Shown: positions 25,030 to 61,352, numbered from the stretch's first letter. The stretch is 64,000 bases of DNA from Candidatus Parcubacteria bacterium (GCA_026395685.1 JAPLYG010000001.1:7862-71861); one strand, 5' to 3'. The notes: generated from the letters alone by a model not told the origin. Numbers and translations: made by a program.

Positions 25030-25046
25030 ATAATAGGTGAAATTTT

Positions 25047-27793: not shown

Positions 27794-27797
27794 TACT

Positions 27798-29760: not shown

Positions 29761-29840
29761 TTATCAACAATGCCTCCTGGACTCAGCAAAGCCGTTGCGT
29801 CATCCCTTGTCTTAGGTAATAACTATTAACCTTAAGACCT

Positions 29841-31181: not shown

Positions 31182-31277
31182 GTAAAATAGAAAAACGCCC
31201 TGCTATTGCGGGCGTTCTTCTGTTTCTCTGAATTTGTACGTCCTTGAGGCACTCGGGTCTCTCGAACGCTTTCTTCT

Positions 31278-31352
31278 TGGTACCGCCTAGGGGAATCGAA
31301 CCCCTGTTACCAGGATGAAAACCTGGTGTCCTAACCACTAGACGAAGGCGGC
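31278..31352 (-). tRNA. tRNA-Glu(UUC), CCA encoded
   Basis: Minus strand reads 'GCCGCCTTCGTCTAGTGGTTAGGACACCAGGTTTTCATCCTGGTAACAGGGGTTCGATTCCCCTAGGCGGTACCA'. Cloverleaf with anticodon loop 'TTTTCAT'. Confidence 0.85.
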
Positions 31353-31356
31353 GTAA

Positions 31357-31611
31357 TTATTTAAGATTAAAACCTAATTTGTTAAGTAACTCTTTACGAA
31401 TTTGATAATTTTTCTTTAATATAAGTTCTATCTTTCTCGCTTCAGTTTTAGTATTATATTCTTCTATATATATTAATTCAAAGGGTATTCTACATTTAGT
31501 TGATTTTGTTTTGCCATTATTATGTTCTTTTAGCCTATTTGTTGGGTTATCACTTATTCCAATATAATAACCTTTATCATTTAAGCTTTGTAAAATATAT
31601 AAATAGTACAT
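31357..31611 (-). CDS. GIY-YIG nuclease-family small protein (YhbQ/UPF0213-like)
   Basis: 'YYLYILQSLNDKGYYIGISDNPTNRLKEHN' (GIY-YIG motif, Arg and Glu) and '...TKTEARKIELILKK'. The ORF-track N-terminus 'MVRTPGF...' is a read-through of the tRNA fragment, so the start is set at the internal Met. Confidence 0.7.
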   Translation of the reverse strand: MYYLYILQSLNDKGYYIGISDNPTNRLKEHNNGKTKSTKCRIPFELIYIEEYNTKTEARKIELILKKNYQIRKELLNKLGFNLK

Positions 31612-31620: not shown

Positions 31621-31694
31621 GGCAGGATGTCCGCCGGAGGCGGATCCGCCTTTGGCGGAAAAACCTGGTGTCCTAACCACTAGACGAAGGCGGC
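31621..31694 (-). repeat. Duplicated 5' half of tRNA-Glu (acceptor, D-arm and anticodon 5' stem) fused to GGATCCGCC palindromic hairpins
   Basis: Minus strand reads 'GCCGCCTTCGTCTAGTGGTTAGGACACCAGGTTTT' then 'TCCGCCAAAGGCGGATCCGCCTCCGGCGGA'. Identical to tRNA-Glu positions 1-35, diverging inside the anticodon loop. Confidence 0.6.
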
Positions 31695-31882
31695 AAGTTT
31701 AGTTCAAAGTTTATAGTGCAAAGTTTAAAGTTGCGTAATAATCATTTTAAACTAAAAATCCCCTAAGGGATTATGGTTATATTATAGGGTAAAAATCAAT
31801 TATCGTCAAGGCTTGACCTTTGTCAGGATATTTGATTAAGTAACTGTAGGACTAACTGTAATAATAACCAAGGAGGATTAAG

Positions 31883-40059: not shown

Positions 40060-40158
40060 AGATGATAGATTATAGATAATGGATTATCCCGCGAAGCGGG
40101 AAGCCGCTACGCGGCTTAGATTTTAGTTTAAGATATTTTGCCGAAAAAGTCAATGATT

Positions 40159-43784: not shown

Positions 43785-46700
43785 ATGTCTATGTTCTATC
43801 GCATCTATCGTCGGCCGCTACTCTCAACAGCCAGGACTGAAGAATTACAGCAAGTTCTGGCAGAAGTGGTGCCGGAAATTTCTGGGCTGGAAACTGAAAA
43901 AGTATTCTGCCTGGAAACAAAAAGGGAACTGACTGACGAGGAAATGGATCGGCTCAGGTGGCTCTTAGGCGGAGCTGACAGAGCCAAATGTCTGTCAGAC
44001 AGAACTTTTTTCCAAGATCACAGCAATGTGATAGAAATTGGTCCGCGGCTGCATTTTGAAACAGCTAATTCAACCAATGCTGTTTCCATTTGCCAGTCCT
44101 GTGAACTACCTGTGATCAGGCTGGAAGAAGCCAGACGTTACAAATTCATAAGCACTCAAACCTTGGGCAATGGCAAGATCGATCTGATTCTGCCGTTGTT
44201 GCACGACAAAATGACAGAGTGTCCGTATCCCAATCAGCTGACAACTTTTGTCACTGACAAAAAGCCGGAGCCGGTAAAGTATATTCCGGTAATGGAACAG
44301 GGAATGGATGCTTTGGTCAAAGCCAATGCTGAATATGGCACTGGCATGGACAAGGCGGATTTGCAGTACTATTTGTATCTCTTCACTGAAGTTGCCAAAC
44401 GCAATCCCACTGATGTTGAATGGTGCGATCTGGGCAACTGTAATTCTGAACATTCGCGACATCATGTCTTCCGCGCCAAGCTGATTATCGACGGACAGGC
44501 AATGCCCTTCACGCTGATGGATATTATCAAAAGCACGCTGACCAATCTCAGCAACTCTATTATTGCTTTTGATGATAATGCCTCGGCGATTAAAGGTGTG
44601 CCAGTTGGTTTCCTCATTCCTGAAAGACCTGGTTTACCTTCGCCAGTGCGTATGGCCGAACTTTTACTCCATTACGTGCTGACCTGCGAAACGCACAATC
44701 ACCCCTGCTTATGGGCAGCATATCCCGGAGCAGGAACGGGTGGCGGTGGCCGCAGACGCGATAATCAGGGTTTGGGCAGAGGCGGCTTAATTGCTGCCTG
44801 TTCAGCTGGATTTTTTGGCGGCAATCTCAATATTCCGGGCTATCCCCTGGAATGGGAAGATCCAAACTTTGCCTATGATCCGCTGTGCGAAAGCCCGCTG
44901 AAATTTTTCCGCAAAGCTGTTAATGGCGCTTTTGATGACGGCAATCAGTGTGGCGAGCCAGTCATTCTGACTTTCTTCGAGAGCTTTGGCTTGCGTATCG
45001 GTGCCGAACGCTGGGAGTACATCAAGCCGATCATGTTTACCGGTGGCTTTGGCTTCCTTGATGATCGCCATGTTAAAAAACACGAACCTGTTCCTGGCTG
45101 GCTGATTGTCCGAATCGGCGGCAAGGCCCATGAAGTTGGTTTTGGCGGCGGTGCTGCTTCCAGCTTAATGGGTGGTCAGAACATTGCAGCCCTTGATTTC
45201 AAATCAGTGCAGCGCGCTGATGGGGAAATGGCTCGCAAAACCGACCAGGTTATCCGCACTTGCGTCATGAAGGGTGATGATAATCCGATTGAAACGATTC
45301 ATGACCAAGGCGCTGGCGGACCTGGTAATGTGCTTAAAGAAATCATGGCTCCGGCTGGCGGTAGGATTGATATTCGCAACATCATCCTGGGCGATAAAAC
45401 CATGTCACCGGTGGCGATCTGGGTTTCCGAGTTCCAGGAAAATATGGCGATGTTAATCAAGCCAGAGCGCTGGGAAGAATTCAAGGCCATCTGCGACCGG
45501 GAAAAAGTCCCCTGCGCCGTGGTGGGTACGATCACTGGCGACGGCAAAGTCGTGGTTATTGATTCTCAGAACAATACCACTCTCTTTGATCTCAGTCTCC
45601 AGCAGATTTTCGGTGAATATCCTCTGAAAACTTATGAGGATACGCGCCGCAAACTAGAACTTCAGCCGCTTAATTTACCCGAAGATCTGTCAGTGGCTCA
45701 AGCTCTGGAAAAAACTTTCAAGCTGTTACAAGTTGGTTCGCAGGAATGGGCAGTTCACGTGGTTGACCGCAGTGTTACACCGCATGTGGTGCAGCAGCAG
45801 TGTGTCGGCCCCTGGCAATTGCCGATCAACAAATATTCGGTGATTGCGCCCAGCCCCTTCAGTCATACTGGCATGACCAATTCAGTAGGCACTAAACCCA
45901 TCATCGGCTTGATTTCACCGCAAGCCAGCGCCAGAATGTCTGCTGCTGAAGCTTTGTTAAGGCTGATGTTTGTTCCGGTCAGCAGTCGAGATGAAATCAA
46001 AGCATCCATAAACTGGATGCTGGCAGCCAAAGTCCCGGGCGGGATTGCCTGGCTGTACGATGCTGCTGTGGCTTTGCGCGATTTCATGAATAGCATCGGC
46101 ATGGATGCTGATGGCGGCAAAGATTCTTTATCAATGGCTACTAATGCCGGCGGAGAAAGAGTCAAATCGCCCAGCACAGTAGTAGTCAGCACCTATGCTG
46201 CTTGTACGGATTATCGCCAGAGATTGCAGCCTTACCTCAAGAATCCTGGCCAAACCAAACTGTTATTTGTTGATTTGGCTAATGGCAAAACCCGCTTAGG
46301 CGCGAGCGCCTTAGCTCAAGTCTGTGGCCAAGTCGGCAATGACTGTCCTGATGTTGAGAATGTTGATTTAGTCAATCAGGCTTTTGATAGCGTCCAGAAA
46401 TTGCTGGTCGCTGACGGCTTGATTGTCTCTGGCCAGCTGCGCAGTCGTAATGGTCTGATCTCGTCGTTGTGTGAAACAGCCTTTGCCGGCAACTGCGGAC
46501 TGTCAGTTAACATTCAACATCCGACAGCTTCGGCTAAAGAGGTACTGTTTTGCGAAGAGCTGGGTTTTGTCCTGGAATATCTGCCGGAAAACGAAGACGA
46601 CTTGTTGGCAGCGTTTGCCGAAGCCGGTCTTTCGAAGCATATCCAACAGATCGGAGTAACCACTACGGATAAGCAAATCATTATTCGTTTTAATGGGGAA

Positions 46701-47684
46701 CCGATCTTCAATGAACCGAGTGATCTCTGGCTACAAAAATGGCGGGAAACATCTTTCCGGATGAAAGCCTTGCGTTCAGTCAAAGCAGTCGTGGCTCAAG
46801 AAAGAGCCAATATTGCCAAAGGCAACGGCCTGGAATTTTCTCTCAGCTTTAATCCGGATTTAATTACTCCGGTGAAGACTGATTTTCCCGGCAAACCGAA
46901 AGTGGCCATTATCCGCGATGAAGGCACTAACAGCCAAGAAGAAATGAAAGTCGCGTTTTACTTGGCTGGCTTTGAACCCTATGATGTCACCATCACTGAT
47001 CTGGCCAGCGGAAAAGTCAGTTTGCGCGATTTTCGCGGCGTCGCTTTCCCAGGCGGATTCAGTTATAAAGATGTCCTGGGTTCAGCTGTTGGCTGGGCCG
47101 GAGTAATCAAGTTTAATCCGGTTCTTGTCAAAGAATTTTTAGCCTTTTTTCAACGGACAGATACTTTCAGCGTGGGCATCTGTAATGGCGATCAGGTAGA
47201 AATCTGGCTGGGAGTGCTTTATCCCGAGCTTGATGAATTGTCGCAGCCCAGGATGTACTTCAACTTGAGTGAATCTTTTGAATCGCGATTTGTCAGAGTG
47301 AGCATCTTGGATTCTCCAGCAATCATGTTGAAGGGTATGGCTGGATCAATTCTGGGAATCCACGTAGCTCATGGCGAAGGTCGTTTTTACTTCCCGGATG
47401 ACCAAATCTATCGTAGTATCCTATCCAAAGGTTTGGCGCCGGTAAGGTACATTGATCCGAGCGATCAACCGACTGAGGATTATCCCTTCAATCCCAATGG
47501 ATCTCCTGCGGGTATTGCGGCTTTGTGTTCTGCTGACGGCAGGCATCTTGCTATTATGCCGCATCCAGAACGTACAGTCCTAGTCAGGCAGTGGCCTTAT
47601 TTGCCCTACGGGACAAATTGGGAAAACTCGCCCTGGCTGAAAATGTTCCAGAACGCCTATCAGTGGTGTATGGAACAGAAGTAA
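43785..47684 (+). CDS. purL: Phosphoribosylformylglycinamidine synthase, single-chain large form (PurL/FGAM synthase)
   Basis: 1299-aa protein. AIRS-like domains, and a C-terminal class-I glutamine amidotransferase with catalytic 'GICNGDQ' and 'MPHPER'. Confidence 0.9.
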   Translation: MSMFYRIYRRPLLSTARTEELQQVLAEVVPEISGLETEKVFCLETKRELTDEEMDRLRWLLGGADRAKCLSDRTFFQDHSNVIEIGPRLHFETANSTNAVSICQSCELPVIRLEEARRYKFISTQTLGNGKIDLILPLLHDKMTECPYPNQLTTFVTDKKPEPVKYIPVMEQGMDALVKANAEYGTGMDKADLQYYLYLFTEVAKRNPTDVEWCDLGNCNSEHSRHHVFRAKLIIDGQAMPFTLMDIIKSTLTNLSNSIIAFDDNASAIKGVPVGFLIPERPGLPSPVRMAELLLHYVLTCETHNHPCLWAAYPGAGTGGGGRRRDNQGLGRGGLIAACSAGFFGGNLNIPGYPLEWEDPNFAYDPLCESPLKFFRKAVNGAFDDGNQCGEPVILTFFESFGLRIGAERWEYIKPIMFTGGFGFLDDRHVKKHEPVPGWLIVRIGGKAHEVGFGGGAASSLMGGQNIAALDFKSVQRADGEMARKTDQVIRTCVMKGDDNPIETIHDQGAGGPGNVLKEIMAPAGGRIDIRNIILGDKTMSPVAIWVSEFQENMAMLIKPERWEEFKAICDREKVPCAVVGTITGDGKVVVIDSQNNTTLFDLSLQQIFGEYPLKTYEDTRRKLELQPLNLPEDLSVAQALEKTFKLLQVGSQEWAVHVVDRSVTPHVVQQQCVGPWQLPINKYSVIAPSPFSHTGMTNSVGTKPIIGLISPQASARMSAAEALLRLMFVPVSSRDEIKASINWMLAAKVPGGIAWLYDAAVALRDFMNSIGMDADGGKDSLSMATNAGGERVKSPSTVVVSTYAACTDYRQRLQPYLKNPGQTKLLFVDLANGKTRLGASALAQVCGQVGNDCPDVENVDLVNQAFDSVQKLLVADGLIVSGQLRSRNGLISSLCETAFAGNCGLSVNIQHPTASAKEVLFCEELGFVLEYLPENEDDLLAAFAEAGLSKHIQQIGVTTTDKQIIIRFNGEPIFNEPSDLWLQKWRETSFRMKALRSVKAVVAQERANIAKGNGLEFSLSFNPDLITPVKTDFPGKPKVAIIRDEGTNSQEEMKVAFYLAGFEPYDVTITDLASGKVSLRDFRGVAFPGGFSYKDVLGSAVGWAGVIKFNPVLVKEFLAFFQRTDTFSVGICNGDQVEIWLGVLYPELDELSQPRMYFNLSESFESRFVRVSILDSPAIMLKGMAGSILGIHVAHGEGRFYFPDDQIYRSILSKGLAPVRYIDPSDQPTEDYPFNPNGSPAGIAALCSADGRHLAIMPHPERTVLVRQWPYLPYGTNWENSPWLKMFQNAYQWCMEQK

Positions 47685-47691
47685 TCCAAAC

Positions 47692-47724
47692 GCCCCGTTG
47701 TCGCAAGACGCGGGGCTTTTTTTA
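47692..47724 (+). terminator. Rho-independent terminator after purL
   Basis: 'GCCCCGTTGTCGCAAGACGCGGGGC' followed by 'TTTTTTT'. Confidence 0.8.
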
Positions 47725-47924
47725 ATTGGTGAGTAGTGTGTTGGTTAGGAAGCTAGTAGGTGGAGGTTTCATGGGTTAGGTGTTGAATAAATACTTTACC
47801 TTAACACTCTGCACTTACTAGCATCTTTACCTTTGCACTTAACCGTATGTTTGACAATTTTCAACATTTTTAATATGGTAAATACGAATTGGTTACAAGT
47901 TTGTACTTTAACAAGGAGAATATT

Positions 47925-49043
47925 ATGGAAGAACAAAAGGGAATGACGTATCAGGGAACCGGCGTAAACTACGATGACATGGATCCATTTAAAAGAGAGG
48001 CGCAACAAGCCGGACTGAAAACAGCCGGTAACATCAGCCGTCTTAATATGACGGAATTTGCTCCGAGCCGGGGCGAGAGCGCGTATCTGGTTGATTGCGG
48101 GAATCATTTTTTGGCGCAGGTCGTGGAAGGCTTGGGTACCAAGAATATTGTGGCCGAAGCCATGCAACAGCTAACCGGTGAATTGCATTTTGATTTAATT
48201 GCCCAGTGCTGCATGGCCATGATCGTCAATGACCTGATTACTGTCGGCGCCTTGCCCATTTCCGCGGCCATGTATTTGGCAGTGGGTGATTCAGCCTGGT
48301 TCAAAGACGAAGCGCGCGCCAAGAATCTGATTGACGGCTGGATGCATGCCTGCAATAAGTCTGGCTGTACCTGGGGTGGTGGGGAAACACCCACACTCAA
48401 AGGCATTATCAATCCAAATACAATCGATCTGAGTGGCGCGGCCATGGGCATCATTAGGAATAAACAGCATTTGATTACTGGCGAGAAGATCAAGCATGGC
48501 GATGTCATCATCGTTTTTGCCAGTTCCGGAATTCATGCCAATGGTCTGACTCTGGCCAGACGGATCGCTGAAAAGTTGTCCCAAGGCTACTTAACTCCAA
48601 TTGATTATATTGGCACGACATATGGCCGAGCCTTGCTGGATCCGACCGTGATCTATGTTCCTATCATCGAAGATTGTCAGTATTGGAATGTGAACGTACA
48701 CTACGCAGTCAATATCACAGGCCATGGTTGGCGCAAGCTGATGCGTAGTCAGGAACCTTTTATTTATGTCATTGAAACAATTCCTGATCCTCAGCCGGTT
48801 TTCCAGATCATGCAAAAGCATGGTCCGGTGGACGACGAAGAAGCCTATGGCAACCTGAATATGGGCGGTGGCTTTGCCATCTTTGTGTCAGAAAAGGATG
48901 TGCCTCTGGTCGTTGATATTTCCAAGGCTACCAACATACCGATTGTCGGCTACGGACATATTGAAAAAAGTGGTGAGGACAAGAAAGTCATCATTGAACC
49001 CAAAGGCATTACCTTTGATAGTAAAAGTCTGCAGGTTCGCTGA
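47925..49043 (+). CDS. purM: PurM-family protein (AIR synthetase / AIR-synthase-related)
   Basis: RBS 'AAGGAGAA' before the ATG at 47925. 'VEGLGTKN', 'MIVNDLITVGALPI', 'SGCTWGGGETPTLKG' and 'GDVIIVFASSGIHANGLTL' align with PurM motifs. Confidence 0.7.
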   Translation: MEEQKGMTYQGTGVNYDDMDPFKREAQQAGLKTAGNISRLNMTEFAPSRGESAYLVDCGNHFLAQVVEGLGTKNIVAEAMQQLTGELHFDLIAQCCMAMIVNDLITVGALPISAAMYLAVGDSAWFKDEARAKNLIDGWMHACNKSGCTWGGGETPTLKGIINPNTIDLSGAAMGIIRNKQHLITGEKIKHGDVIIVFASSGIHANGLTLARRIAEKLSQGYLTPIDYIGTTYGRALLDPTVIYVPIIEDCQYWNVNVHYAVNITGHGWRKLMRSQEPFIYVIETIPDPQPVFQIMQKHGPVDDEEAYGNLNMGGGFAIFVSEKDVPLVVDISKATNIPIVGYGHIEKSGEDKKVIIEPKGITFDSKSLQVR

Positions 49044-49283
49044 TTTGATTTTTAAAGGGATTCGTGGAAACGCGGGTCCCTTTTTCTAATTGTCAAAAAG
49101 GTTAGGGTTAGGATGTTGATAGGTGTAAAGTGCTTGGGTTAGGTGACCTTGCCCTGCCTGCCAATAGGAAGTAGACAGGCTAAACACTCCACTCTTAATA
49201 TCGTCTTTACCATTACACCTAACTCTTGTTTGACAAAATATAGATTTTATTATAATTTCAAGCTAGAAAAGAAGGGTCAAAAC

Positions 49284-49808
49284 ATGGAGATTAATGAAAG
49301 TCTAGCTAAGCAGATTCAGGCAAGAACTCGTGAATTTCAGAAAAAACGTCTCTGGAAGAAATCCACGGCCATTGCAAAGACATTTGGCAGAAAAGATGTC
49401 CGTGAAGCCAGCGATCATACGACTGTTACGTATGATTTTAATCAGAATCGATGCTGTGGTTTTTTCAGGGTCTACCTGTCAAATTTTGTTTACGGCGGAT
49501 ACTATGTGAATGTAGAAATCGCGGGCAAAACGGTTTTGTCCGCCCAGGAAACATTCGCTGATTCTGAAGACGCCAAACATTTTCCTTTCCAGATCTGCAA
49601 GTATGGGAGCAGTTTGCTCTTTGTTAAGATTTACATCCCGGGCGATTGGGAAAAACTTATGGATATGAAGTTTATGCGCAAGGAAGTAAAAGCCCTGGAA
49701 GCTGCAGAACAGGGCAGGCTTAAAGAACATGACGAAACAGCGGAAAAATCAAGACCCCTTACCAGGGAGGAACAAGAATTAGCCGCGAATTTCGGCATCA
49801 AAGGCTAA
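49284..49808 (+). CDS. Hypothetical protein (start at ATG 49284 preferred over the extended ORF start 49143)
   Basis: A repeat element and a TTGACA/TATAAT promoter occupy 49150-49260. No known motif. Confidence 0.4.
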   Translation: MEINESLAKQIQARTREFQKKRLWKKSTAIAKTFGRKDVREASDHTTVTYDFNQNRCCGFFRVYLSNFVYGGYYVNVEIAGKTVLSAQETFADSEDAKHFPFQICKYGSSLLFVKIYIPGDWEKLMDMKFMRKEVKALEAAEQGRLKEHDETAEKSRPLTREEQELAANFGIKG

Positions 49809-49815
49809 AAATTAT

Positions 49816-49844
49816 GCCCGCATCTTCGGATGCGGGTTTTTTTA
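49816..49844 (+). terminator. Rho-independent terminator
   Basis: 'GCCCGCATCTTCGGATGCGGG' followed by 'TTTTTTT'. Confidence 0.8.
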
Positions 49845-50054
49845 TTTGTTGTTAGTGAATCGGTATCGATAATCGTTTCGTTTATCGTTAATCGTTTGAC
49901 GTGACGTATATAGTACAACGTTCAACGTAACCTGCCTGTCGGCAGACAGGCTAAACACTCCACTCTTACCAGCATCATTACCATTACACCTTGCCTTTAA
50001 ATAAAAATACCCTCGTGTTCCGAAGGTATTTTTAAGTAATTTGGCTGTCTGAGT

Positions 50055-50622: not shown

Positions 50623-53600
50623 TTAGCGCGGTATATTTACATTGCCTTTTAGCCTGATTCTAGCAATAACGCCTCTGCCATTATTTTTTTCATCTTTTTC
50701 TAAAATTAATTCCCAATTTTTGCGGGCTTCAGGCGTTTCAGCATTAAAAAAGAGGGTTGGTATTTTGCTGTTGGGCACAAAAATTTTATACCAGGATACT
50801 TTGACTTCAGCTCCTGCATCTAAAATAGATATATCCTCAATTGGGAAAGAATTAAGGTTAAGCCTGTTTAAAAGGATCAGCGCATTTTCATTAAAATATT
50901 CCCCATTCCTAACGATTTGCCTGTTGGGAGGAAGTTGTCCGGCCAGAATTCTTTTGACATAATTATTATCGCCATAGTCAATTTTCTCGTTGGCCCCAAT
51001 AAGATTTTTCATAAAGGTTTGATCATTCAGCAGGTTTTTAGTAAATGCTTCAACGTCAGAATCAACCAGAGTTAGAATCTCCAGGACTACAGGAGTAAAT
51101 TCATTCAGCTTTGCTTCTAGAATCTGCTTAACCTCTTGAGGATGATTTTTGACATGATGCTGTAAAAATTTGCCTGTCAAAGGAAAATAAATTTGGGCAA
51201 ATTCTTTGGCTTCTTCAAAATTTTCAGCTTCTCCTAACTTTTCAAATACTTCACTATTAAGAAAATGATTTATATGGTTCTCAAGCTCATTTTTAAAGAT
51301 GCCTGCCAACTCAGTTAAAAATGTAATTTCTTTGGCAGAAAGCGATTTGTCCCTGATAACTTCTGCCAATTGGCCTTCTCTTTTCTTGAGATTTTTCAGC
51401 TTGTTCCTGATTATTTCCAGCTGTTTTTCTAGCGGAAGATTGCGCAGCCACGGACTGGCAATATTGAAATTTCTATTGGCTAAGGCAATTATAAATTCCT
51501 GATCTTTTCCCAAATCTGTACCTTTTGAAATCAAATCTTTGATCTCATCTTGTTTTTTTAATATTTCATCAATTTGCCTCAGGTCTTTTAGTGAGTTTAA
51601 TTCAGTAAAGATCAGCCTTTTTTGTTTTGTCGCTTCCACTAAGGGCAAGCCAAAATTAGGATTTTTTTCCACCAATTTCTCAAAAAATTGTAAGTTGTCA
51701 GGATTTTGCAGCCAGCTGGAATTGTAATTTAGGAGTTTTTCTAGCTGGCTTGTTTTGTCAAAATTTTCCTTTATAATTTCACGCAGTTCTGCCTGGCTGT
51801 TAGCATCGTCAAACAGCATATTGATATAAACAATTGCAGAATCAAAGTCTTTTTTTGCCATTTTTCTGACTTCGGCAGCATCTTCAAGAATAATTCCTTT
51901 TACGTTTTCCATAATTAACCTGGAATTGGTGCCACGTCCGGCTAACGCTTCCTTGAGAAACCTTTTTTGATCTTCCGGCGTTAAATATTTTAGATATTTC
52001 AACGCCAATGAGAAGCTAAGGTCTGCCAATTTGTTCATTATTTCAAGGTCGTCACAAATCTTTGGATTGCTTTTTAGAAAAGATTCAAGATCAAGCATCT
52101 CCGGGTGGATAAGGTATTCTTTAACAGATAAAATTATTTTCTTCTGGATTTCTTTATCTTTAGTTATTCCCAGGGCTAAGGCAAAATGATGATAAGCAAT
52201 TTCTCCAATGATATTCCTATTACTTAAATACTCTGGCTTAATTTCTAAAATTTTCTTTATATCACTTTCAGACAAATCTTGTATTTTTTTTATAATAATG
52301 TCCTCTAAGTTTGTAGCGCCGATTTGTGCTGGTAAGTCTTTCAGATAGGGAATTAAAAGAGAAAAATTATATCTTCTTACAGCTTGCAATAGTTGCTGAT
52401 CAGCAAGCAGTTCTTTGTTTCTGGCAATAAGGTCATTAAAAATTTCAATAGAAGCGGTAGAAGCAGTGCCGAATTTAATGTAGGTTATAACAACTTCCCT
52501 TTTTTCCTCATCAGTCAACTGCGGCAGCAACAGATCTTTATAGTAACTTATTTTTTCCTTAAGTGATGTCTTAATTTGGGGGACATCCAGCAAGTCAGGC
52601 CTTGCTTTTAAAAATTGTTCGATTTTATAAACATAATTATCTCCTCCGCTGACTGGTACGCCGTGATGAAATAATATTTTTTCCATAATAGCAATCTGGG
52701 TTTCTTCATCAACCTTGTCTGCAAATTTAAAAAATATTTCCGGGTTTTTTTCAGCAATTAATCGGCCGAAAGCTTCATTCTTTAAAAAATTCGGATATTG
52801 ACTTAAAATTTCGTCTAACTTATTGATTCTTTCCGGACTTTTAAAATTTATATTGGCAGCTTTTTCAAGATAATGTAATATCCTTTGCTTTTTTTGGTTT
52901 TCATCAGATAAAAGACTGGGATCAACTTCTATAATAGCTTTCAAGGCAAAAAAGTTTTTATCAATAAGCTCTGTCAGAAATCCCTGCTCTGCTCCCAATT
53001 TTGTTACTTTTGCTAAAGTCGTGAGAATTCTTGGAAGCGCATACTCTGATTTACAATTTAGAGCTAAAAATTTTAATAATTCTTTACCGCTCACGGTATA
53101 TTGCCGGGATATCAAGGCGTTAATAATGTCTACTTTGCCGGTCAGCAATTTTTTTATTTCCTCGCCATCTGTCAGCTCACGACAAATTGACAGAATAATA
53201 TGATCATAGGCTATTCTGGCAAAAGTATGCTTTTTTGTCGTGTCTTTTCTTTTTTTACCTATTCTATATACTTCCCATTCTTCCCAGTCATTATTGGAGC
53301 TCCTTTTATACTGAAGAAGTAAAATCAGTATTTTAGGCTTGGAAAGGTTATGTGTCTTGGAAATTTGTTTAATCAGCTTGTCTAAATTATCCGTATCAAA
53401 CTGATCAACGCCTGGTTTGCTGACTTTGTTTACCAGTTCTTCGTATTGTTCTCCGACCATTTTTCTCAGCAGTTTATCTTGTTTTTCCTGATCCATCTTT
53501 TCCCCCAGAATTTCTGTTCTAAAGCGAAAAATTCGATGAACAAAGCCCGGATCCGAAGTTATTGTATCTGAAAGTTTTACGAAAAGATCATTTAATTTAC

Positions 53601-56247
53601 TTTTGTGCACCCCAATTAATTTTATTACCTGTTCGTCTTGGCTATTGGCATCAAGAAAATAAAACAGACTTATAATAAACTCACGATCGTGTGATTTTTC
53701 AGCGACAGAAATCGCCTGCTCAAGGTTATTAATCTTTTCCTGCTTAAATTTTGTGGTTAGGCTAAAAAGCTGTAAAATTTCAGGTAGATTTAATTTATCT
53801 TCTTCAGGGTTATTTTTACTTAAATTGAAATAGTAACTGCTTAGTTTTTTTGGCGCATATCGCAAGACAATGGGTAAATCAAGCTTGGGCGTGGTTGGCA
53901 ACAGGCTCAAAACCTCAAGTAACTTATCCTGATTGGTTTTTATATCCTGAGTCAGCTTTTTTATATAATTCTCAATAGTTTCTTTAATTTCCGCTCCGAT
54001 TTTTATTTGGCTGAATAATTTTGCCTTTTCTTCAGTTGCAATATCCAGGATTAGCAAATTTTCCGCATAATTGGTAAAGTTTGCCAGCACTTTTTTGCGC
54101 ATAAATTCCTGCACCTCGGGATTTTTATGCTTTAGCAAGCTTATGGGAAAGTTTAATTTTGTGGTTTCCGGCAGAGAAGTTAAAATATCCAAAACCAGGG
54201 GCGCAAAGGCGGCTAATTTTTCAGAATTTCGTTCTTTAAAAAATTCTTTATAAATATTTTGGGCAACCTCTACGCTGACATTGCCCTTGAGTTTAAGCAG
54301 GCAATATTGCAGATTTTTGGGGTCAAGGCCTTTATTCAAAAAGCCAATTGGATTTTGGGCCACGTATTCCATGTATCTTTGATCCAGTCCGCCTTCTTTT
54401 TCTGCTGATTTTTTCACTTCTTTTATTACCTGAGTCGGAGTAATTTTTTCTTTGATTTGAAAAACAGTTATGTTGTTTAAGTCTGCGGCTAATTTTTCCA
54501 AATTAACTTTTTTGTCGATTTTTGCCAGGAAATATTTCAAGCGTCCCAGTTTGGTAAGGGCACGTTGGCGATGGGATTCTCCCAGTTTTTCTTCGATTTG
54601 ATTTTGGGTGTCCTTATCAAGTGTCGGGATGGCGCTTTTTTCCAGGACGCTGATATTATTTTTTGCCAAGACATTATAAAATTCCGAAGTAAAAGGCTGA
54701 TTGGTGGAAAAACGTAAAAGTCCGCCTGTTTTGGCCATGCGTACCATGTCAACAAGCATATTTTTTACATCATTTTCTGATGACGGCCCCTTAAGATTAT
54801 CAAAAGAAGAGCATTCTACCAGATCAATGCAATTATCGGCAATCGGCGTATGCTTCATATCCGCCAGAATATCATGGCCTTGATTTTTTATGTCTTGAGG
54901 CAAGGTTTCGCGACTGTTGGCCAGCATGTCAAGGCTGTAATCTGCTGAAATAATATGTTCCGGCATTTTATAATCAGGAAAGCGTTTGGCAATATCATAA
55001 TGGGCTCTTAATTCTTCATGAGGTCCGGAAGCAACAGAAAGAATTACCTGGGGAAGATTCTTTATTAATCCTTTTTTATATTTGCTGATTAAATCTAAAA
55101 CAGCTGCCCGATGTTCCAAATATTGGGGAAAATAATCCATATATTTGACATACAGCTTGGTAATTTCATTGGTCCATTTCCCTGTTTTGGTAGCATTGGA
55201 AATCAGCCAGAATTTTTGCTGCAGTTCATTGGGGACAATTGATTTTTCAGTGGTTTTAATTCTTTTAAAATTCAATAATTCAGGATTGGGATCTGCTATT
55301 TCTTTAAATTTAATGCCCTCCGCATCTAAAAAGGGGAAAATATTATGAAGCGGTATCATTTCAGCCGGGGTGTCATTTAAGACTTCGACAATTTTGCTTT
55401 GCTCTCGGGAGATCGCTCCGGAAAAAAATTCATTCAATTCTCGCTTGCCCAGTTCCTCAAATTTTTGCAGTTCCTTAAAGGTTGAAGCCTGTTTCAATTG
55501 CTTGAAGCGTAAATCTTCAATCTCAAAATCAGCAATGTTCAAGTCGGGATATTCTTTGCGCAAAATTTTCCAGACTGTTTCTTTTACTTCGTCGGCTAAT
55601 ATTTTTTTTATAAAATAAGCAATAATGTCAGATTTCTTTTCAGCCAAGACGCTGTCTTTGGGCAACCCTTTCTCCAATTTATATTGTTCTTCTAGGGATT
55701 TATTTTTTTCCAGGTTTTCTTTGATTTTTTCAAAGGTATAAAGAATCGCGCCGGTAATTTTCGGGCTGAGGTTTATATTATTGGGCAAACCATTAATTTT
55801 AAGCGCCACTCCCATCGGCATGATGGAAAATTCAGAAGCTGATTTTAAGTAGGTTTCCATAATCGGCAGATTGCCAAAAGGCAAGCGAGCTTCAATGACT
55901 GTTTTTTGCAGTCTTTCCTTTGAGGTAAGCTCTTCGCTTGACACTTCTTGTCCCAGATTAATTTCTTCGGATGTTTGTAATTTTTCTTTAATCAGAGATT
56001 TCATCTCCGCAGTCAGGTCAAGCTGCAGCATAACAGCCCAAAAGCGGCGTCTGATTTCCAGGCCGGAATTGCTAATCTTTTTTATATATTCGACAAAATT
56101 GGCAGTTTCTGTTTGTTTGTTTTCAGTGCTAAGTAAAATTAAAATTTCTTGGGCAATTGAATCTTTAAATTTTTCAGTGCCAAGTAGGTCTTTAAGCAGT
56201 TGTTGCGGAGATTTTTTAAGCTGTTCTTTCAGAGAAAAATTTAACAT
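50623..56247 (-). CDS. Giant (1874 aa) largely alpha-helical hypothetical protein with an embedded class-I SAM-MTase-like segment
   Basis: Uninterrupted 5.6-kb ORF. 'VILSVASGPHEE' and 'ADMKHTPIADNCIDLVECSSFDNL' resemble MTase motifs I and II/III. No TM segments. Terminator hairpin 'GGCAGCTTAGTGAGCCGCC' lies downstream at 50587-50620. Confidence 0.55.
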   Translation of the reverse strand: MLNFSLKEQLKKSPQQLLKDLLGTEKFKDSIAQEILILLSTENKQTETANFVEYIKKISNSGLEIRRRFWAVMLQLDLTAEMKSLIKEKLQTSEEINLGQEVSSEELTSKERLQKTVIEARLPFGNLPIMETYLKSASEFSIMPMGVALKINGLPNNINLSPKITGAILYTFEKIKENLEKNKSLEEQYKLEKGLPKDSVLAEKKSDIIAYFIKKILADEVKETVWKILRKEYPDLNIADFEIEDLRFKQLKQASTFKELQKFEELGKRELNEFFSGAISREQSKIVEVLNDTPAEMIPLHNIFPFLDAEGIKFKEIADPNPELLNFKRIKTTEKSIVPNELQQKFWLISNATKTGKWTNEITKLYVKYMDYFPQYLEHRAAVLDLISKYKKGLIKNLPQVILSVASGPHEELRAHYDIAKRFPDYKMPEHIISADYSLDMLANSRETLPQDIKNQGHDILADMKHTPIADNCIDLVECSSFDNLKGPSSENDVKNMLVDMVRMAKTGGLLRFSTNQPFTSEFYNVLAKNNISVLEKSAIPTLDKDTQNQIEEKLGESHRQRALTKLGRLKYFLAKIDKKVNLEKLAADLNNITVFQIKEKITPTQVIKEVKKSAEKEGGLDQRYMEYVAQNPIGFLNKGLDPKNLQYCLLKLKGNVSVEVAQNIYKEFFKERNSEKLAAFAPLVLDILTSLPETTKLNFPISLLKHKNPEVQEFMRKKVLANFTNYAENLLILDIATEEKAKLFSQIKIGAEIKETIENYIKKLTQDIKTNQDKLLEVLSLLPTTPKLDLPIVLRYAPKKLSSYYFNLSKNNPEEDKLNLPEILQLFSLTTKFKQEKINNLEQAISVAEKSHDREFIISLFYFLDANSQDEQVIKLIGVHKSKLNDLFVKLSDTITSDPGFVHRIFRFRTEILGEKMDQEKQDKLLRKMVGEQYEELVNKVSKPGVDQFDTDNLDKLIKQISKTHNLSKPKILILLLQYKRSSNNDWEEWEVYRIGKKRKDTTKKHTFARIAYDHIILSICRELTDGEEIKKLLTGKVDIINALISRQYTVSGKELLKFLALNCKSEYALPRILTTLAKVTKLGAEQGFLTELIDKNFFALKAIIEVDPSLLSDENQKKQRILHYLEKAANINFKSPERINKLDEILSQYPNFLKNEAFGRLIAEKNPEIFFKFADKVDEETQIAIMEKILFHHGVPVSGGDNYVYKIEQFLKARPDLLDVPQIKTSLKEKISYYKDLLLPQLTDEEKREVVITYIKFGTASTASIEIFNDLIARNKELLADQQLLQAVRRYNFSLLIPYLKDLPAQIGATNLEDIIIKKIQDLSESDIKKILEIKPEYLSNRNIIGEIAYHHFALALGITKDKEIQKKIILSVKEYLIHPEMLDLESFLKSNPKICDDLEIMNKLADLSFSLALKYLKYLTPEDQKRFLKEALAGRGTNSRLIMENVKGIILEDAAEVRKMAKKDFDSAIVYINMLFDDANSQAELREIIKENFDKTSQLEKLLNYNSSWLQNPDNLQFFEKLVEKNPNFGLPLVEATKQKRLIFTELNSLKDLRQIDEILKKQDEIKDLISKGTDLGKDQEFIIALANRNFNIASPWLRNLPLEKQLEIIRNKLKNLKKREGQLAEVIRDKSLSAKEITFLTELAGIFKNELENHINHFLNSEVFEKLGEAENFEEAKEFAQIYFPLTGKFLQHHVKNHPQEVKQILEAKLNEFTPVVLEILTLVDSDVEAFTKNLLNDQTFMKNLIGANEKIDYGDNNYVKRILAGQLPPNRQIVRNGEYFNENALILLNRLNLNSFPIEDISILDAGAEVKVSWYKIFVPNSKIPTLFFNAETPEARKNWELILEKDEKNNGRGVIARIRLKGNVNIPR

Positions 56248-56315
56248 ATAAAGAGGTTAATATTGATAGAGTAATTATAACACAATTTTAGCTTAAATTT
56301 AATAAATTTTGGGAA

Positions 56316-56360
56316 TAATAAAAGGGCGGTGCTTTTGCCCGCCCCTTGGTTGTCTTTTTT
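56316..56360. terminator. Bidirectional terminator between the giant gene start and the PEPCK stop
   Basis: 'GGGCGGTGCTTTTGCCCGCCC' with an A-run before and a T-run after. Confidence 0.6.
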
Positions 56361-58152
56361 AATTTTTGTTCAGTCGGTTCTTCAAAAGCAAATGCTGCTG
56401 GAAAATTTCAACCGGCACGGTATTGCCCAGTTTTTCCTTGAGGAATTTTTCCCGCTTGTCCATCTCTTCCAGCCAAAGATCTTTATCAATCTTCAGCAGT
56501 TTCTCCATGGTCTCAGGGTCAATGTTCAAGCCAGTCAGATCAAGGTCGTTTGGTCCCGGCATAAAGCCAATCGCTGTTTTTTGCGCTTCAATTTTGTTGT
56601 TGCAACGGCTAATAATCCATTCCAAAACACGCAGGTTATCGCCATAACCTGGCCAGAGGAAATTGCCGTTTTCATCTTTACGGAACCAATTGACATGGAA
56701 AATCTTTGGCGCCGGGTTCAGGCGCTCACCGGTACGCAGCCAATGGCTTAAATAATCAGCCAGGTTGTAGCCGCAGAATGGCAGCATGGCCATGGGGTCA
56801 AACCTTAGATCTCCAATGCCCTGAGTTTGGGCTGCTGTTACCTCAGAAGATGTAGTTGCCCCGATATAGACTCCATGTTCCCAGTTGAAAGCCTCATAAA
56901 CCAGAGGTGTGACTGTAGCGCGGCGACCTCCAAAAATAATCGCCGAGATGGGCACTCCTTGAGGTTGTTCAATCCGTCGGCTGACACTGGGACATTGTGA
57001 TAAGGGTGCAGTGAAGCGGCTGTTGGGATGAGCGCCCAGAATCAGCTTGTTGTCAGCGTCTCGCAATCCCGGGTACCAGGGTAATCCCTGCCAATTAACT
57101 CCGCTTGCCGGAGTTTCGCCATCGCAACCTTCCCACCAGACAGTGTAATCAGGTTTAAGTAAAGTATTGGTAAAGATCGTGTTTTTACCAATTGTTGCCA
57201 TGGCATTGGGATTGCTCTGAGTATTTGTTCCGGGTGCAACACCAAACATGCCTGCTTCAGGGTTGATACCCCAAAGTTGGCCGTCGGTATTCACCCGCAA
57301 CCAGGTGATATCATCGCCAATGGTGAAAATACGGTAACCCTTGGCTTTGAATCCTTCAGGAGGAATCAGCATGGCCAAATTAGTTTTGCCGCAGGCACTG
57401 GGAAAGGCCGCTGCAATGTAAGTGATTTGTCCGCTTGGACTCTCAATGCCCATAAGGAGCATATGTTCAGCCAGCCAGCCCTCTTGTCTGGCTTGGTAAC
57501 TGGCAATGCGTAAAGCCAGGCATTTTTTGCCCAGCAGTGCATTTCCGCCATAACCAGAACCAACGCTCCAGATTTCATTGTCCTGGGGAAAATGAAGAAT
57601 CAGGCGCCGTTCAGGATCAAGCGATGCCAGACCGTGCATGCACCGGGTAAATTCACCCTTGTACCCCAGGGCATCTAAAACAGCTGAACCGGCTCTGGTC
57701 ATGATCATCATGTTGATCACGACATAGAGAGAGTCGGTAATTTGGACTCCAATTTTGGAAAATTGAGAGCCAATTGGTCCCATGGAAAATGGGATCACGT
57801 ACATTACGCGGTTGCGCATGGAGCGTGAAAAGATCCCTGTTGCCCGATCGCGTGCTTCCTGAGGAGACATCCAGTTATTGGTCGGGCCAGCCTGGTACTT
57901 ATCCTGAGTACAGATGAATGTCAGCTGCTCAGTTCGGGCAACATCTCCAGAATTACTGCGATGATAATAGCAGCCAGGATGTTTATCCTGGTTTAGCTTG
58001 ATCAGGTCGCCGTTGCGCAAAGCAAGCTGAATTATTTCTTCTCGTTGTGCATCAGAGCCATCGACAATAACAATGTCTTTAGGCTCGCACATGGCAGCCA
58101 TCTGCCAGATCCATCTGCGCAGACCCTCATGTTTGATCTCATCCAATTTCAT
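56359..58152 (-). CDS. pckG: Phosphoenolpyruvate carboxykinase (GTP)
   Basis: About 600 aa. N-terminal 'WIWQMAAMCEPKDIVIVDGSD'. Kinase-1a 'AAAFPSACGKTNLAM'. 'YGGNALLGKKC'. GC-rich. Confidence 0.9.
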   Translation of the reverse strand: MKLDEIKHEGLRRWIWQMAAMCEPKDIVIVDGSDAQREEIIQLALRNGDLIKLNQDKHPGCYYHRSNSGDVARTEQLTFICTQDKYQAGPTNNWMSPQEARDRATGIFSRSMRNRVMYVIPFSMGPIGSQFSKIGVQITDSLYVVINMMIMTRAGSAVLDALGYKGEFTRCMHGLASLDPERRLILHFPQDNEIWSVGSGYGGNALLGKKCLALRIASYQARQEGWLAEHMLLMGIESPSGQITYIAAAFPSACGKTNLAMLIPPEGFKAKGYRIFTIGDDITWLRVNTDGQLWGINPEAGMFGVAPGTNTQSNPNAMATIGKNTIFTNTLLKPDYTVWWEGCDGETPASGVNWQGLPWYPGLRDADNKLILGAHPNSRFTAPLSQCPSVSRRIEQPQGVPISAIIFGGRRATVTPLVYEAFNWEHGVYIGATTSSEVTAAQTQGIGDLRFDPMAMLPFCGYNLADYLSHWLRTGERLNPAPKIFHVNWFRKDENGNFLWPGYGDNLRVLEWIISRCNNKIEAQKTAIGFMPGPNDLDLTGLNIDPETMEKLLKIDKDLWLEEMDKREKFLKEKLGNTVPVEIFQQHLLLKNRLNKN

Positions 58153-59382: not shown

Positions 59383-59528
59383 CACGAAAATAGTTTAAAG
59401 TTCAAAGTGCAAAGTTTGAAGTTACAATGTAAAGTTTAAAATTTTGGAATAATTATTTAACATGTCCTTCCTAAACTTTGAATTATTAACTGCAATTTTA
59501 CATTTTAAATTTTGAACTTTTAACTATC

Positions 59529-59587
59529 CGTGTGTCCCCGCTAGGAATCTCCCGCGAAGCAGGATCCGCCTCTGGCGGAGAACCTTG
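59529..59587 (-). repeat. GGATCCGCC-hairpin element plus a duplicated 3' end of tRNA-Arg
   Basis: Minus strand immediately 3' of tRNA-Arg reads 'TCCGCCAGAGGCGGATCC...', then 'TTCCTAGCGGGGACAC', a repeat of the tRNA T-stem and acceptor 3' strand. Confidence 0.55.
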
Positions 59588-59659
59588 TGTCCCCGCTAGG
59601 AATCGAACCTAGATCTAAAGCTTAGAAGGCTTTCGTTCTATCCATTGAACTACAGGGAC
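59588..59659 (-). tRNA. tRNA-Arg(UCU). CCA not encoded.
   Basis: Minus strand reads 'GTCCCTGTAGTTCAATGGATAGAACGAAAGCCTTCTAAGCTTTAGATCTAGGTTCGATTCCTAGCGGGGACA'. Anticodon loop 'CTTCTAA'. Confidence 0.8.
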
Positions 59660-59679
59660 TTATTTAATTTGTGGGTACT

Positions 59680-59730
59680 CCATTGTCCCGCGGCGCGGGA
59701 TCCGCCTCCGGCGGAAACTACAGGGACGAA
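59680..59730 (-). repeat. tRNA-Arg 5' fragment interrupted by GGATCCGCC-hairpin element
   Basis: Minus strand reads 'GTCCCTGTAGTT' (tRNA-Arg positions 1-12), then 'TCCGCCGGAGGCGGATCCCGCGCCGCGGGA', then 'CAATGGA' (D-loop). Confidence 0.55.
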
Positions 59731-59960
59731 ATCCGCTCTGTCATTCCGAATGTTAATGAGGAATCTCTTTGGGTTTCGGTATCCAAGGAGATCCTTCGCT
59801 ATGCTCAGGATGACAGAGCGGATTTTAATTTAAAAAAGCTCAAAGCTCAAAGCTCCGAGCCCAGAGCTTACTCGTATTTTAGCAGAAAAATTTAGTTTAG
59901 TCAATATTAAAAAGGCGAGAGAACTCGCCTTTTGTCAGCAGTGGGAAAATCGTTTATCGA

Positions 59961-60413: not shown

Positions 60414-61352
60414 TTAGCCTTTAGTTTTATGATGAAAATTCTTATAAACTTCGCGCAGTTGCTTATCAGTAATATGAGTATAAATTTGAGTAGTGGTAAT
60501 TGATGAATGTCCCAGCATCATCTGGACTGAACGGATATCAGCGCCGTTTTGGAGCAGATCCGTGGCAAAGGAATGGCGCAACACATGGGGAGTAATTTTT
60601 TTGGTAATGCCGGCAATCTTGGCGCATTTTTGGACGATCCTTTGAACTGACCGCGGAGTTAAGCCTTTATCTTCTTTGGTTTTATTGCGTTTTATTCCGG
60701 CTTTGTCATGATTGGTAAATAAATAGGCGGACATATCTTTGCGGGCATCACAATATTTTTTTATCCAGTGTTTGGCCTGGTTGGATAAAAAGACGACACG
60801 TAATTTCGAGCCTTTGCCGCGGACCGTGAATTCGTCTTTATTGAGGTTGATTGCCTCTTTTTTCAAGCCGGCTAATTCAGAAACACGCAATCCGGTACAA
60901 AATAAAGTTTCCAGAATTGCTTTGTCGCGCAGTTGTAATATTTCCGGCTGATCAATTTTAAAAGGCGCTTCCAGAAAGTTTTGCAAATCAGAGCCTTCCA
61001 AAAATTCGATCTGGCGTTCGGGCATTTTGGCTAGTTCAATTTTTTCCGGAGCTAAAGTTTTAATATCCTGTTTGGCTAAATACTTTAAAAAAGCGCGCAA
61101 GGCGATCAGATGATAATTCTGAGTATTTTTTTTCAGCGGCGAACCAGCCGCATCTGTTTGCCTGTTGAGCCATAAGCGATAATTGCGCACAGAATCCTGG
61201 GTGATTTGTTCTGCGCCGGAAAAACCAGACCAAGCCAAAAAACGGTTGAGATAGAAATGATAATTCTCAATCGTATTGCGCGCCCGGCCTTTTTCAATTT
61301 CGAGGTATTCGAGAAATTGGCGGATTAGGTTTTGGAGATTTGGTGATGGCAT
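60414..61352 (-). CDS. Tyrosine recombinase XerC/XerD family
   Basis: C-terminal catalytic region 'RHSFATDLLQNGADIRSVQMMLGHSSITTTQIYTH' (R..H..R..Y pentad). Confidence 0.85.
   Translation of the reverse strand: MPSPNLQNLIRQFLEYLEIEKGRARNTIENYHFYLNRFLAWSGFSGAEQITQDSVRNYRLWLNRQTDAAGSPLKKNTQNYHLIALRAFLKYLAKQDIKTLAPEKIELAKMPERQIEFLEGSDLQNFLEAPFKIDQPEILQLRDKAILETLFCTGLRVSELAGLKKEAINLNKDEFTVRGKGSKLRVVFLSNQAKHWIKKYCDARKDMSAYLFTNHDKAGIKRNKTKEDKGLTPRSVQRIVQKCAKIAGITKKITPHVLRHSFATDLLQNGADIRSVQMMLGHSSITTTQIYTHITDKQLREVYKNFHHKTKG

Follow-up and report, generated by a model that had tools for sequence, protein, structure and literature searches.

In a 64,000-nucleotide stretch of DNA from Candidatus Parcubacteria bacterium (GCA_026395685.1 JAPLYG010000001.1:7862-71861; hereafter the window, with positions counted from its first letter), we identified a double-hairpin element (DHE) of exactly 30 nt, a tandem pair of units each made of a 6-bp GC stem and a 3-nt loop, which interrupts partial copies of tRNA genes. 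The analysis firmly shows that the DHE is a precise, mobile 30-bp palindromic insertion with the target TY/NA (a slash between bases marks the insertion point) and a tolerated reading frame. Two recurrent composites are shown with equal firmness, one consisting of an orphan tRNA half, a DHE, a GIY-YIG gene and an intact tRNA, the other of a tRNA followed by a 3' fragment with a DHE in its T loop. On balance, and with modest confidence, we favour the reading that the DHE is a non-autonomous selfish palindromic insertion sitting in spare tRNA copies made by other processes.

The window holds four DHE copies in total, three of them in partial tRNA copies and one intergenic:
59686..59715, minus strand: DHE copy 1, TCCGCCGGAGGCGGA followed by TCCCGCGCCGCGGGA, at 12/13 within the tRNA-Arg 5' fragment
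59550..59579, minus strand: DHE copy 2, TCCGCCAGAGGCGGA followed by TCCTGCTTCGCGGGA, with one stem mismatch, in the T loop (56/57) of the tRNA-Arg 3' fragment
31630..31659, minus strand: DHE copy 3, TCCGCCAAAGGCGGA followed by TCCGCCTCCGGCGGA, in the anticodon (35/36) of the orphan tRNA-Glu half
40087..40116, plus strand: DHE copy 4, TCCCGCGAAGCGGGA followed by AGCCGCTACGCGGCT, with the variant stems TCCCGC and AGCCGC, intergenic between a TrmB-like gene and ftsH

The 3-nt-loop pattern TCCGCCNNNGGCGGA was matched four times in the 64-kb window against 0.03 expected, and its 4-nt-loop version was matched nowhere in it. Perfect GC-rich hairpins of the 6+3+6 form numbered seven in the 64 kb, all within the four DHEs, and the eighth half carried one mismatch. 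Both halves of copy 3 are of the TCCGCC type, and copy 4 has no tRNA link. Folding of single-stranded DNA predicted two hairpins for three of the four copies (-9.3 to -12.5 kcal/mol) and one longer hairpin for copy 4 (-13.2 kcal/mol). Compared with the intact gene, each insert in a tRNA piece is precisely 30 nt, without target duplication, at all three sites: GTT/CAA (12/13), TTC/GAT (56/57) and TTT/CAT (35/36). A preliminary description of this DNA had reported a palindrome of about 20 nt, with a loop of 3-4 nt, occurring three times against partial tRNA copies. The quoted hairpin strings are present, on the minus strand, and their abutment to a partial tRNA-Arg 3' end, a tRNA-Arg 5' end and a tRNA-Glu 5' half was confirmed against the intact genes. 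The three tRNA-linked copies stand, with the corrections that each hairpin is half of a 30-nt DHE, that the loop is 3 nt and that a fourth copy is intergenic.

The mobility of the DHE is seen in MiaA, for which a DHE-carrying protein was compared with its 120 closest homologues (63-74% identity). The results revealed RQMTWF-(SAxGGSAxGG)-K(R/K)D in 6 of the 120 and an uninterrupted RQMTWFK, mostly followed by RD, in 113. Near relatives, for example P0058 and P0062, were distinguished by the 10 residues alone. Judged from these alignments, the polymorphism shows the gain, or the precise loss, of a 30-bp unit without duplication. The small palindromic mobile element proposed in the preliminary description is thus borne out, both by the insertion polymorphism that it suggested looking for, in which filled and empty MiaA alleles differ by exactly 10 codons, and by the at least 120 loci described below against about one expected by chance. 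As a separate observation, P0082 and P0085 carry a different 12-residue insert (EPPSPTGFGEPG and EPPTPTGFGGPS) two residues past the MiaA DHE site, P0085 having both this insert and the DHE, which suggests another family of small in-frame elements.

A pattern of 20 specified bases was run on a species-representative genome collection of 596 Gb, for which about one chance match was estimated. At least 120 loci were recovered, with 125 DHE instances among the matches listed, to which the counts in this and the next three paragraphs refer; counts from the collections are lower bounds biased towards the exact pattern, and the taxon labels of metagenome-assembled genomes (MAGs) may be wrong. About half of the 80 titled loci bear candidate phyla radiation (CPR) labels (Kaiser-, Sacchari-, Parcu-, Doudna-, Magasanik- and Liptonbacteria, among others), and the remaining labels include Omnitrophota, Kiritimatiellae, Lentisphaerae, Planctomycetales, Elusimicrobia, Ignavibacteria, Melainabacteria and others. 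Viral contigs yielded only four DHE matches, and none to GGTTC followed by a DHE; matches this few indicate that the DHE is not mainly phage-borne.

Ninety of the 125 copies (about 72%) lie within stop-free frames of at least 150 codons, and the frame translated as SAxGGSAxGG is used in 78 of these 90 genic copies, against 8 and 4 in the other frames (chi-square about 115). The host open reading frames (ORFs) encode LeuRS, DNA polymerase III alpha (DnaE), DnaG, LepA, UvrB, Mfd, MiaA and DnaJ, as well as a type I restriction R subunit and glycosidases. The flanks show T at -2 (81%), T or C at -1 (85%), A, C or G at +1 and A at +2 (78%), so that the TY/NA target is symmetric, the downstream A being as conserved as the upstream T. 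Loop 1 reads N-R-A and loop 2 T-Y-N, the loops being otherwise independent, and because loop 1 ends in A and loop 2 begins with T, the conserved core is AGGCGGA-TCCGCCT. Variant stems retain their pairing (TCCTCC with GGAGGA, TCCACC with GGTGGA, CCCGCC with GGCGGG). Two candidate rules were rejected: mutually complementary loops, which would make a perfect 30-bp palindrome, failed for lack of complementarity past the A9/T22 pair, and a general rule of landing in the loops of pre-existing hairpins failed since flanking stems of at least 5 bp occurred at 7.3% of the sites against 5.1% of control TY/NA sites, a difference that was not significant. Separately, many non-coding DHEs elsewhere lie within short tandem repeats (AAAAGTC, AAAATC, AGGATTT, GGTTCTC), and the DHE-bearing LeuRS frame of locus L020 (636-4058, minus strand; 1141 codons) holds NUDIX and alpha/beta-hydrolase domains between its editing and anticodon-binding domains.

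Stable GC hairpins in AT-rich DNA beside tRNA genes might also be host regulatory structures, such as terminators or RNA processing signals, or assembly artefacts. The T-run that marks an intrinsic terminator is absent after the hairpin at all four window copies. At the gathering threshold, tRNAs and the LOOT RNA were the only Rfam hits in the window, and none fell on the hairpins. Most copies lie inside coding frames and come from MAGs of many laboratories and assemblers, judged from isolate and contig naming. We regard this explanation as scarcely credible.

The link of the DHE to tRNA pieces proved recurrent and partial. Only 3 of the 125 genome copies lie in tRNA pieces (L040, L069 and L115), a share still far above that of such DNA in a genome. 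A pattern search of the kind proposed in the preliminary description, here run on the genome collection, placed most copies in protein genes and about 122 of 125 without a tRNA link, which formally contradicts the tRNA-linked distribution it expected. A metagenome scan for GGTTC followed by a DHE, to whose listed matches the following counts refer, gave at least 61 non-redundant true DHEs, and in 29 of the 61 the rest of the T loop and the T stem continued after the DHE. In 23 of these 29 an intact tRNA lies on the same strand, 7-99 nt upstream of the start of the fragment, so that the proposed tRNA association holds at this kind of site. The tRNAs concerned are Thr, Pro, Ala, Arg, Leu, Lys, Ser, Met and Val; the acceptor strand of the fragment agrees with the neighbouring tRNA, and its T stem often carries compensatory differences (L133, L139, L189). 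At L197 and L230 the allele type changes from one side of the DHE to the other. Another 31 non-redundant DHE matches are not T-loop-like and include coding sites such as RQMTWF of MiaA. DHEs as introns of working tRNAs were rejected, since deleting them in silico recovered no tRNA from the genome sample and a single tRNA-Pro (L230) from the metagenome sample.

About 50 further metagenome loci carry a single hairpin only, which belongs to an unrelated motif. This motif, TTCGTGATT(N)ATCTTTTTTGGTTC TCCGCC-NNN-GGCGGA TCCGGGTTAGG, was seen in about 40 contigs (L125, L129, L132, L141-L143, L149, L150, L158-L160, L166, L168, L173 and others). Rfam gave no match for the loci with the TCCGGGTTAGG motif, which may be an undescribed RNA or terminator module.

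At the tRNA-Arg locus, DHE copies 1 and 2 lie on either side of an intact gene, together with the following features:
59716..59727, minus strand: tRNA-Arg 5' fragment, positions 1-12, GTCCCTGTAGTT, same as in the intact gene
59679..59685, minus strand: tRNA-Arg 5' fragment, positions 13-19, CAATGGA, followed by a 19-nt spacer (59660-59678)
59587..59659, minus strand: intact tRNA-Arg(TCT)
59580..59584, minus strand: left part of the tRNA-Arg 3' fragment, GGTTC, positions 52-56, at the start of a 27-bp tandem duplication unit
59531..59549, minus strand: right part of the tRNA-Arg 3' fragment (57 to the end), GATTCCTAGCGGGGACACA, continuous with the ancestral downstream flank

Along the minus strand the order is GTCCCTGTAGTT, DHE 1, CAATGGA, the spacer, tRNA-Arg(TCT), CAA, GGTTC, DHE 2 and GATTCCTAGCGGGGACACAC. 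The downstream block consists of a perfect 27-bp tandem duplication unit (GGTTCGATTCCTAGCGGGGACACAN) with GG microhomology at its bounds, plus the 30-bp DHE; DHE 2 sits 5 nt into the second copy of the repeat, and this second copy joins the ancestral flank. Syntenic contigs were reached through homologues of phosphoenolpyruvate carboxykinase (PEPCK). Contig L253 (PEPCK 83% identical) has the same order as the window, tRNA-Arg, tRNA-His, csp, an ORF and PEPCK, and its tRNA-Arg and tRNA-His are plain, with neither fragment nor DHE. Aligned to L253, the window has two extra blocks, of about 62 nt upstream and about 50 nt downstream of tRNA-Arg; the block with the 5' fragment and positions 13-19 is missing from L253, and we read the downstream block as probably the 27-nt duplicate plus the 30-nt DHE. 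In L254 (PEPCK 84% identical), GGCGGGTATAGTT, a DHE and CAATGG are followed by 18 nt and an intact tRNA-His, with the DHE at the same D-arm site as in the tRNA-Arg 5' fragment of the window. Because the tRNAs of L253 are plain and L254 has a different module, the modules of fragment and DHE are lineage-specific gains.

The preliminary description had proposed that insertion of the palindrome duplicates tRNA segments. In such a process, the partial duplication could be made by staggered cuts, or by slippage of replication over the hairpin in a tRNA gene that is essential, so that only duplicated survivors would be seen. Fragment and DHE were indeed gained together across relatives, the short fragment side next to the DHE is regularly only 5-14 nt, and in each of three independent 5' modules (tRNA-Arg of the window, tRNA-His of L254 and tRNA-Lys of L038) 24-26 nt separate the DHE from the intact tRNA. 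Against this, filled and empty MiaA alleles (RQMTWF/SAxGGSAxGG/KRD and RQMTWFKRD) differ by 10 codons with no duplication, the tRNA pieces likewise show bare 30-bp inserts, and about 97% of the genome-sample copies among the matches listed have no tRNA piece. DHE 2 lies 5 nt inside a repeat copy, hence the repeat is not a target-site duplication. Because the MiaA alleles lack a duplication and the DHE is inside a repeat copy and not between copies, the comparisons indicate that duplication of tRNA segments by the DHE itself does not hold, and we consider such an origin of the partial copies quite unlikely.

Other repeats were observed around this locus. A 97-nt palindromic element (59729-59825; arms AAATCCGCTCTGTCATTCCGA and TCAGGATGACAGAGCGGATTT), single-copy in the window, abuts position 1 of the tRNA-Arg 5' fragment, and similar caatccgtctttgttgtcattccgagcg repeats adjoin DHEs in a Kiritimatiellae MAG (L006 twice; L073). 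AT-rich, quasi-periodic (A)AAGTT and AAATTT repeats with inverted symmetry occupy 59390-59525, between tRNA-His and tRNA-Arg, and also 31700-31760, upstream of the tRNA-Glu fragment.

The tRNA-Glu locus adds a gene to the arrangement around DHE copy 3:
31660..31694, minus strand: orphan tRNA-Glu 5' half, positions 1-35, same as in the intact gene
31623..31629, minus strand: tRNA-Glu positions 36-42, CATCCTG, with which the orphan half ends
31357..31611, minus strand: 84-aa GIY-YIG nuclease gene (UPF0213-like), separated by 11 nt from the orphan half upstream and by 4 nt from the intact tRNA-Glu downstream
31278..31352, minus strand: intact tRNA-Glu(TTC)

The 84-aa product matches the Pfam GIY-YIG catalytic domain PF01541 (E = 8.9e-17) and is 100% identical to P0001, a protein labelled as coming from a Candidatus Parcubacteria MAG. 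Among solved structures it is closest to the UPF0213 proteins EF2693 and BH0048 (structures 1ywl and 1zg2), with weak similarity to SLX1 nuclease domains. Eight of 56 GIY-YIG homologues are annotated with an N-terminal extension, (M/V)VRT(P/S/L/A)(G/S)(F/S)SAxGG(S/P)AxGG(H/Q)(P/S), which results from translating tRNA-Glu from about position 18 to position 35, then the DHE, then positions 36-41. Loci L245, L248 and L251 have the same layout: an old tRNA-Glu 5' half with the DHE at 35/36, about 8 nt, the GIY-YIG gene, about 6-8 nt and an intact tRNA-Glu. The tRNA-Ser loci L040, L177/L184 and L233 likewise show a half tRNA, a DHE, a nuclease gene and a tRNA, with nucleases 45-47% identical (window against L040), and the tRNA-Met locus L241 has a related layout with a nuclease 36% identical and no DHE at the anticodon. 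In all, the order of orphan half, GIY-YIG gene and immediately following intact tRNA holds for the window, L040, L177, L233, L241, L245, L248 and L251, and for the eight extended homologues. At L177, L233, L241 and L251 a 3' module stands behind the intact tRNA, made of a few nucleotides of the T arm, a DHE and the old 3' end. The old 5' end of L233 (GGAGATG...) pairs with its old 3' end (...CATCTCC), and both are unlike the new gene (GGAGGGT... and ...CCCTCC); therefore, the working tRNA is a different allele within a split old gene. The preliminary description had considered a homing target, which is close in spirit; the putative homing-type gene itself, the GIY-YIG ORF, went unmentioned there.

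Orphan pieces also bear other GC hairpins, different in sequence and length, at D-arm 12/13, in the D loop and in the T loop, and some hold nested DHEs. The loci with other hairpins are L245 1370-1470, L248 1340-1450, L038 7830-7880, L102 1615-1650, L069 2330-2365 and L251 1880-1940, and the 60-nt insert of L040 is one DHE within the loop of another. On the 3' side of tRNA-Glu, positions about 12500-31200 are a probable integrated island, with no tRNA-Glu 3' repeat at its far end. Its genes encode an N6-methylase/type I-like protein, a SIR2-like and HerA (DUF87) pair, a radical SAM protein, a DUF2779 protein, two ParB/N4-N6 methyltransferases, an HTH_Tnp_1_2 protein and a large serine recombinase (29841-31181).

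The anticodon loop and the T loop are the classical crossover locations of tRNA-targeting integrases, and DHE positions coincide with them. The tRNA fragments might on this ground be attL/attR scars of integrase integration, with the hairpins as recombinase sites; recombinase genes lie near both tRNAs (tyrosine 60414-61352; serine as above), and a number of fragments represent alleles that have diverged from the tRNA beside them, their stems changed in a compensatory way. However, the repeats are 2-330 nt apart and flank no island, and a second copy of the tRNA-Glu 3' end was looked for in the window and not found. By its score the tyrosine recombinase is a housekeeping enzyme of the Xer type, and the same 30-mer occurs in frame within housekeeping proteins. 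Such an origin appears very improbable.

In the reading of the DHE as a selfish insertion, which we prefer, the element, widespread in CPR/Patescibacteria and in several other uncultivated phyla, lands exactly at T-Y/N-A sites without target-site duplication, and in protein genes only the frame reading Ser-Ala-x-Gly-Gly twice is tolerated. At tRNA-Glu, a homing-type GIY-YIG cassette would spread by cleavage and repair, leaving an orphan 5' half, and the DHE at 35/36 would be inherited along with the cassette. At tRNA-Arg, local slippage would account for the pieces, with positions 1-19 duplicated on the 5' side and a 27-bp unit repeated in tandem on the 3' side. DHEs may persist in such pieces for several reasons: tRNA loops fit the target (TTC/GAT, GTT/CAA, TTT/CAT), insertion into a working tRNA copy would be lethal, and a 30-bp interruption would break the direct repeat that might otherwise delete the duplication or the cassette. 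Nuclease activity, homing, a trans-acting mobilising enzyme and a stabilising role are thus what we infer.

Several observations weigh against this account. The DHE stands at 35/36 in 12 of the 12 examined members of the tRNA-Glu nuclease lineage, which have diverged to 63-81% identity, and compensatory changes preserve the DHE stems in this lineage beyond the expectation for a neutral passenger. Fragment and DHE are nearly always together, with no DHE-free fragment among close relatives, which also fits a mechanistic coupling. The 84-aa GIY-YIG protein is a catalytic domain only, with no separate DNA-binding domain, which is atypical for a homing endonuclease. Eighteen of the 23 T-loop modules among the matches listed have neither a GIY-YIG gene nor a 5' fragment nearby, and the cassette therefore cannot account for all fragments. 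No DHE-mobilising enzyme was identified, the window ORFs including no Y1/RAYT transposase, and the bias of the counts and the doubtful MAG labels noted above count on the same side.

The constant 35/36 site and the preserved stems speak for a further explanation, a real, if less probable, possibility, namely that DHEs belong to a GIY-YIG/tRNA homing cassette as functional ends or components and are not passengers. A unit of DHE, short tRNA piece, nuclease, replacement tRNA, short piece and DHE would invade a resident tRNA gene; the hairpins would serve as copy limits, as a binding or structure site for the nuclease, or as stabilisers of the mRNA 5' end, and solo DHEs would be mobilised in trans. 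Besides the constant 35/36 site, shared with the tRNA-Ser cassettes, and the preserved stems (CCCGCC with GGCGGG), this explanation draws on the DHEs at both ends in L177, L233 and L251, on the switch of allele type at the DHE in L197 and L230, and on the structure-specific SLX1 nucleases being the nearest solved relatives after UPF0213. It is opposed by the DHEs in protein genes, which are the majority and have no GIY-YIG gene nearby (two hits in 843 kb of DHE-centred loci), by the 18 nuclease-free T-loop modules and by the L241 cassette without an anticodon DHE; moreover, the intact tRNA beside the nuclease would retain any tRNA-internal target. As a tentative and rather doubtful proposal, the DHE and the 84-aa UPF0213-type GIY-YIG protein might form one two-part mobile system, a 'tRNA-swap' homing element carrying a replacement tRNA. 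The nuclease would then possibly be structure-specific like SLX1, with the DHE as its cis element and the hairpins kept by selection, and solo copies in their hundreds would be spread in frame over the proteins of CPR and other bacteria.

Further features were observed in the window. A LOOT RNA (25076-25203, minus strand; Rfam RF03000, 80.9 bits against a gathering score of 46.4) lies directly upstream of a 372-aa ORF (23962-25080) without a Pfam match. A giant 1874-aa ORF (50623-56247, minus strand) has no Pfam match either, and a 1245-aa ORF (636-4373) has CBM_4_9 as its sole domain. The GC content, 31-38% in the rest of the window, jumps to 45-50% at 44000-50000 and 56000-58000, where purL/purM-like genes and PEPCK lie. 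A Parcubacteria genome would not usually be expected to encode a large-form PurL and a GTP-PEPCK, and the closest PEPCK homologues outside the genus are labelled Omnitrophota or Margulisbacteria.

If the selfish-insertion reading is correct, we know of no in-frame selfish element that would be smaller or more widely distributed than the DHE, which would be a bacterial counterpart of the mitochondrial GC clusters. The recurrent layout would mean that CPR tRNA genes have been repeatedly invaded, and perhaps replaced, by a nuclease cassette, which would give the uncharacterised UPF0213 proteins a testable role and offer a handle on recombination in unculturable organisms. Should the two-part system be real, the UPF0213 family would gain its first function, and the selfish elements of bacteria a new class. 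The DHE is also an annotation hazard, as ORFs become longer (the GIY-YIG gene here in its 107-aa version), homology is split and pseudo-tRNA pieces arise.

Our literature search found no description of the 30-bp element or of the tRNA cassette. Several known systems resemble them in part. Rickettsia palindromic elements (RPEs), reportedly described by Ogata et al. in 2000, are about 100-150 bp long. Like the RPEs, which are mentioned in PMC1779305, the DHE is a selfish palindrome without coding capacity of its own that lies in frame in unrelated, often essential protein genes and also in RNA genes. RPEs are found in Rickettsia only, whereas the DHE has 30 bp, another sequence, a range over many phyla and a defined 10-residue translation. 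In Neurospora, PstI palindromes flank tRNA genes. The GC clusters of yeast mitochondria (PMC4478555) and the repetitive hairpin-forming and double-hairpin elements of sponge mitochondria (PMC2800124) are likewise short GC-rich, sometimes double, hairpins that spread in AT-rich compact genomes, some of them polymorphic, in frame or associated with tRNAs. They differ in being organellar, unrelated in sequence and usually variable in length, and no link to a GIY-YIG/tRNA cassette has been described for them.

Known free-standing GIY-YIG homing endonucleases have their catalytic domain joined to a DNA-binding region. SegB of phage T4, a free-standing GIY-YIG homing endonuclease, belongs to a tRNA gene cluster (PMC2330249), and here too a GIY-YIG gene lies among or beside tRNA genes in a layout that suggests spread by cleavage and repair of the tRNA region. 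The present gene differs in encoding the 84-aa UPF0213-type catalytic domain alone, between an orphan half and an intact tRNA, with a constant palindrome in the orphan half. GIY-YIG ORFs inside non-intron insertions of CPR rRNA genes (PMC11270868) share the bacterial group and the presence of small GIY-YIG genes in structural RNA genes, but that work has no tRNA cassettes and no 30-bp palindrome. REP/BIME repeats, which are associated with RAYT transposases, and the palindromic derivatives of IS200/IS605 are also short palindromic repeats, and IS200/IS605 elements insert by a short motif without target duplication, using DNA hairpins. REPs, however, are extragenic with a GTAG head, whereas the DHE is mostly intragenic. 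At DHE sites there is no duplication and T-Y lies upstream, the target as a whole being symmetric, and no TnpA was seen in the window. Unlike miniature inverted-repeat transposable elements, the palindromic DHE leaves no target-site duplication at the three tRNA sites or the MiaA site, and unlike tRNA-targeting integrative elements, the tRNA repeats of the window flank no multi-kb island. The DHE works like the RPEs and the mitochondrial GC clusters, and is set apart from both by its size, its sequence and its hosts.

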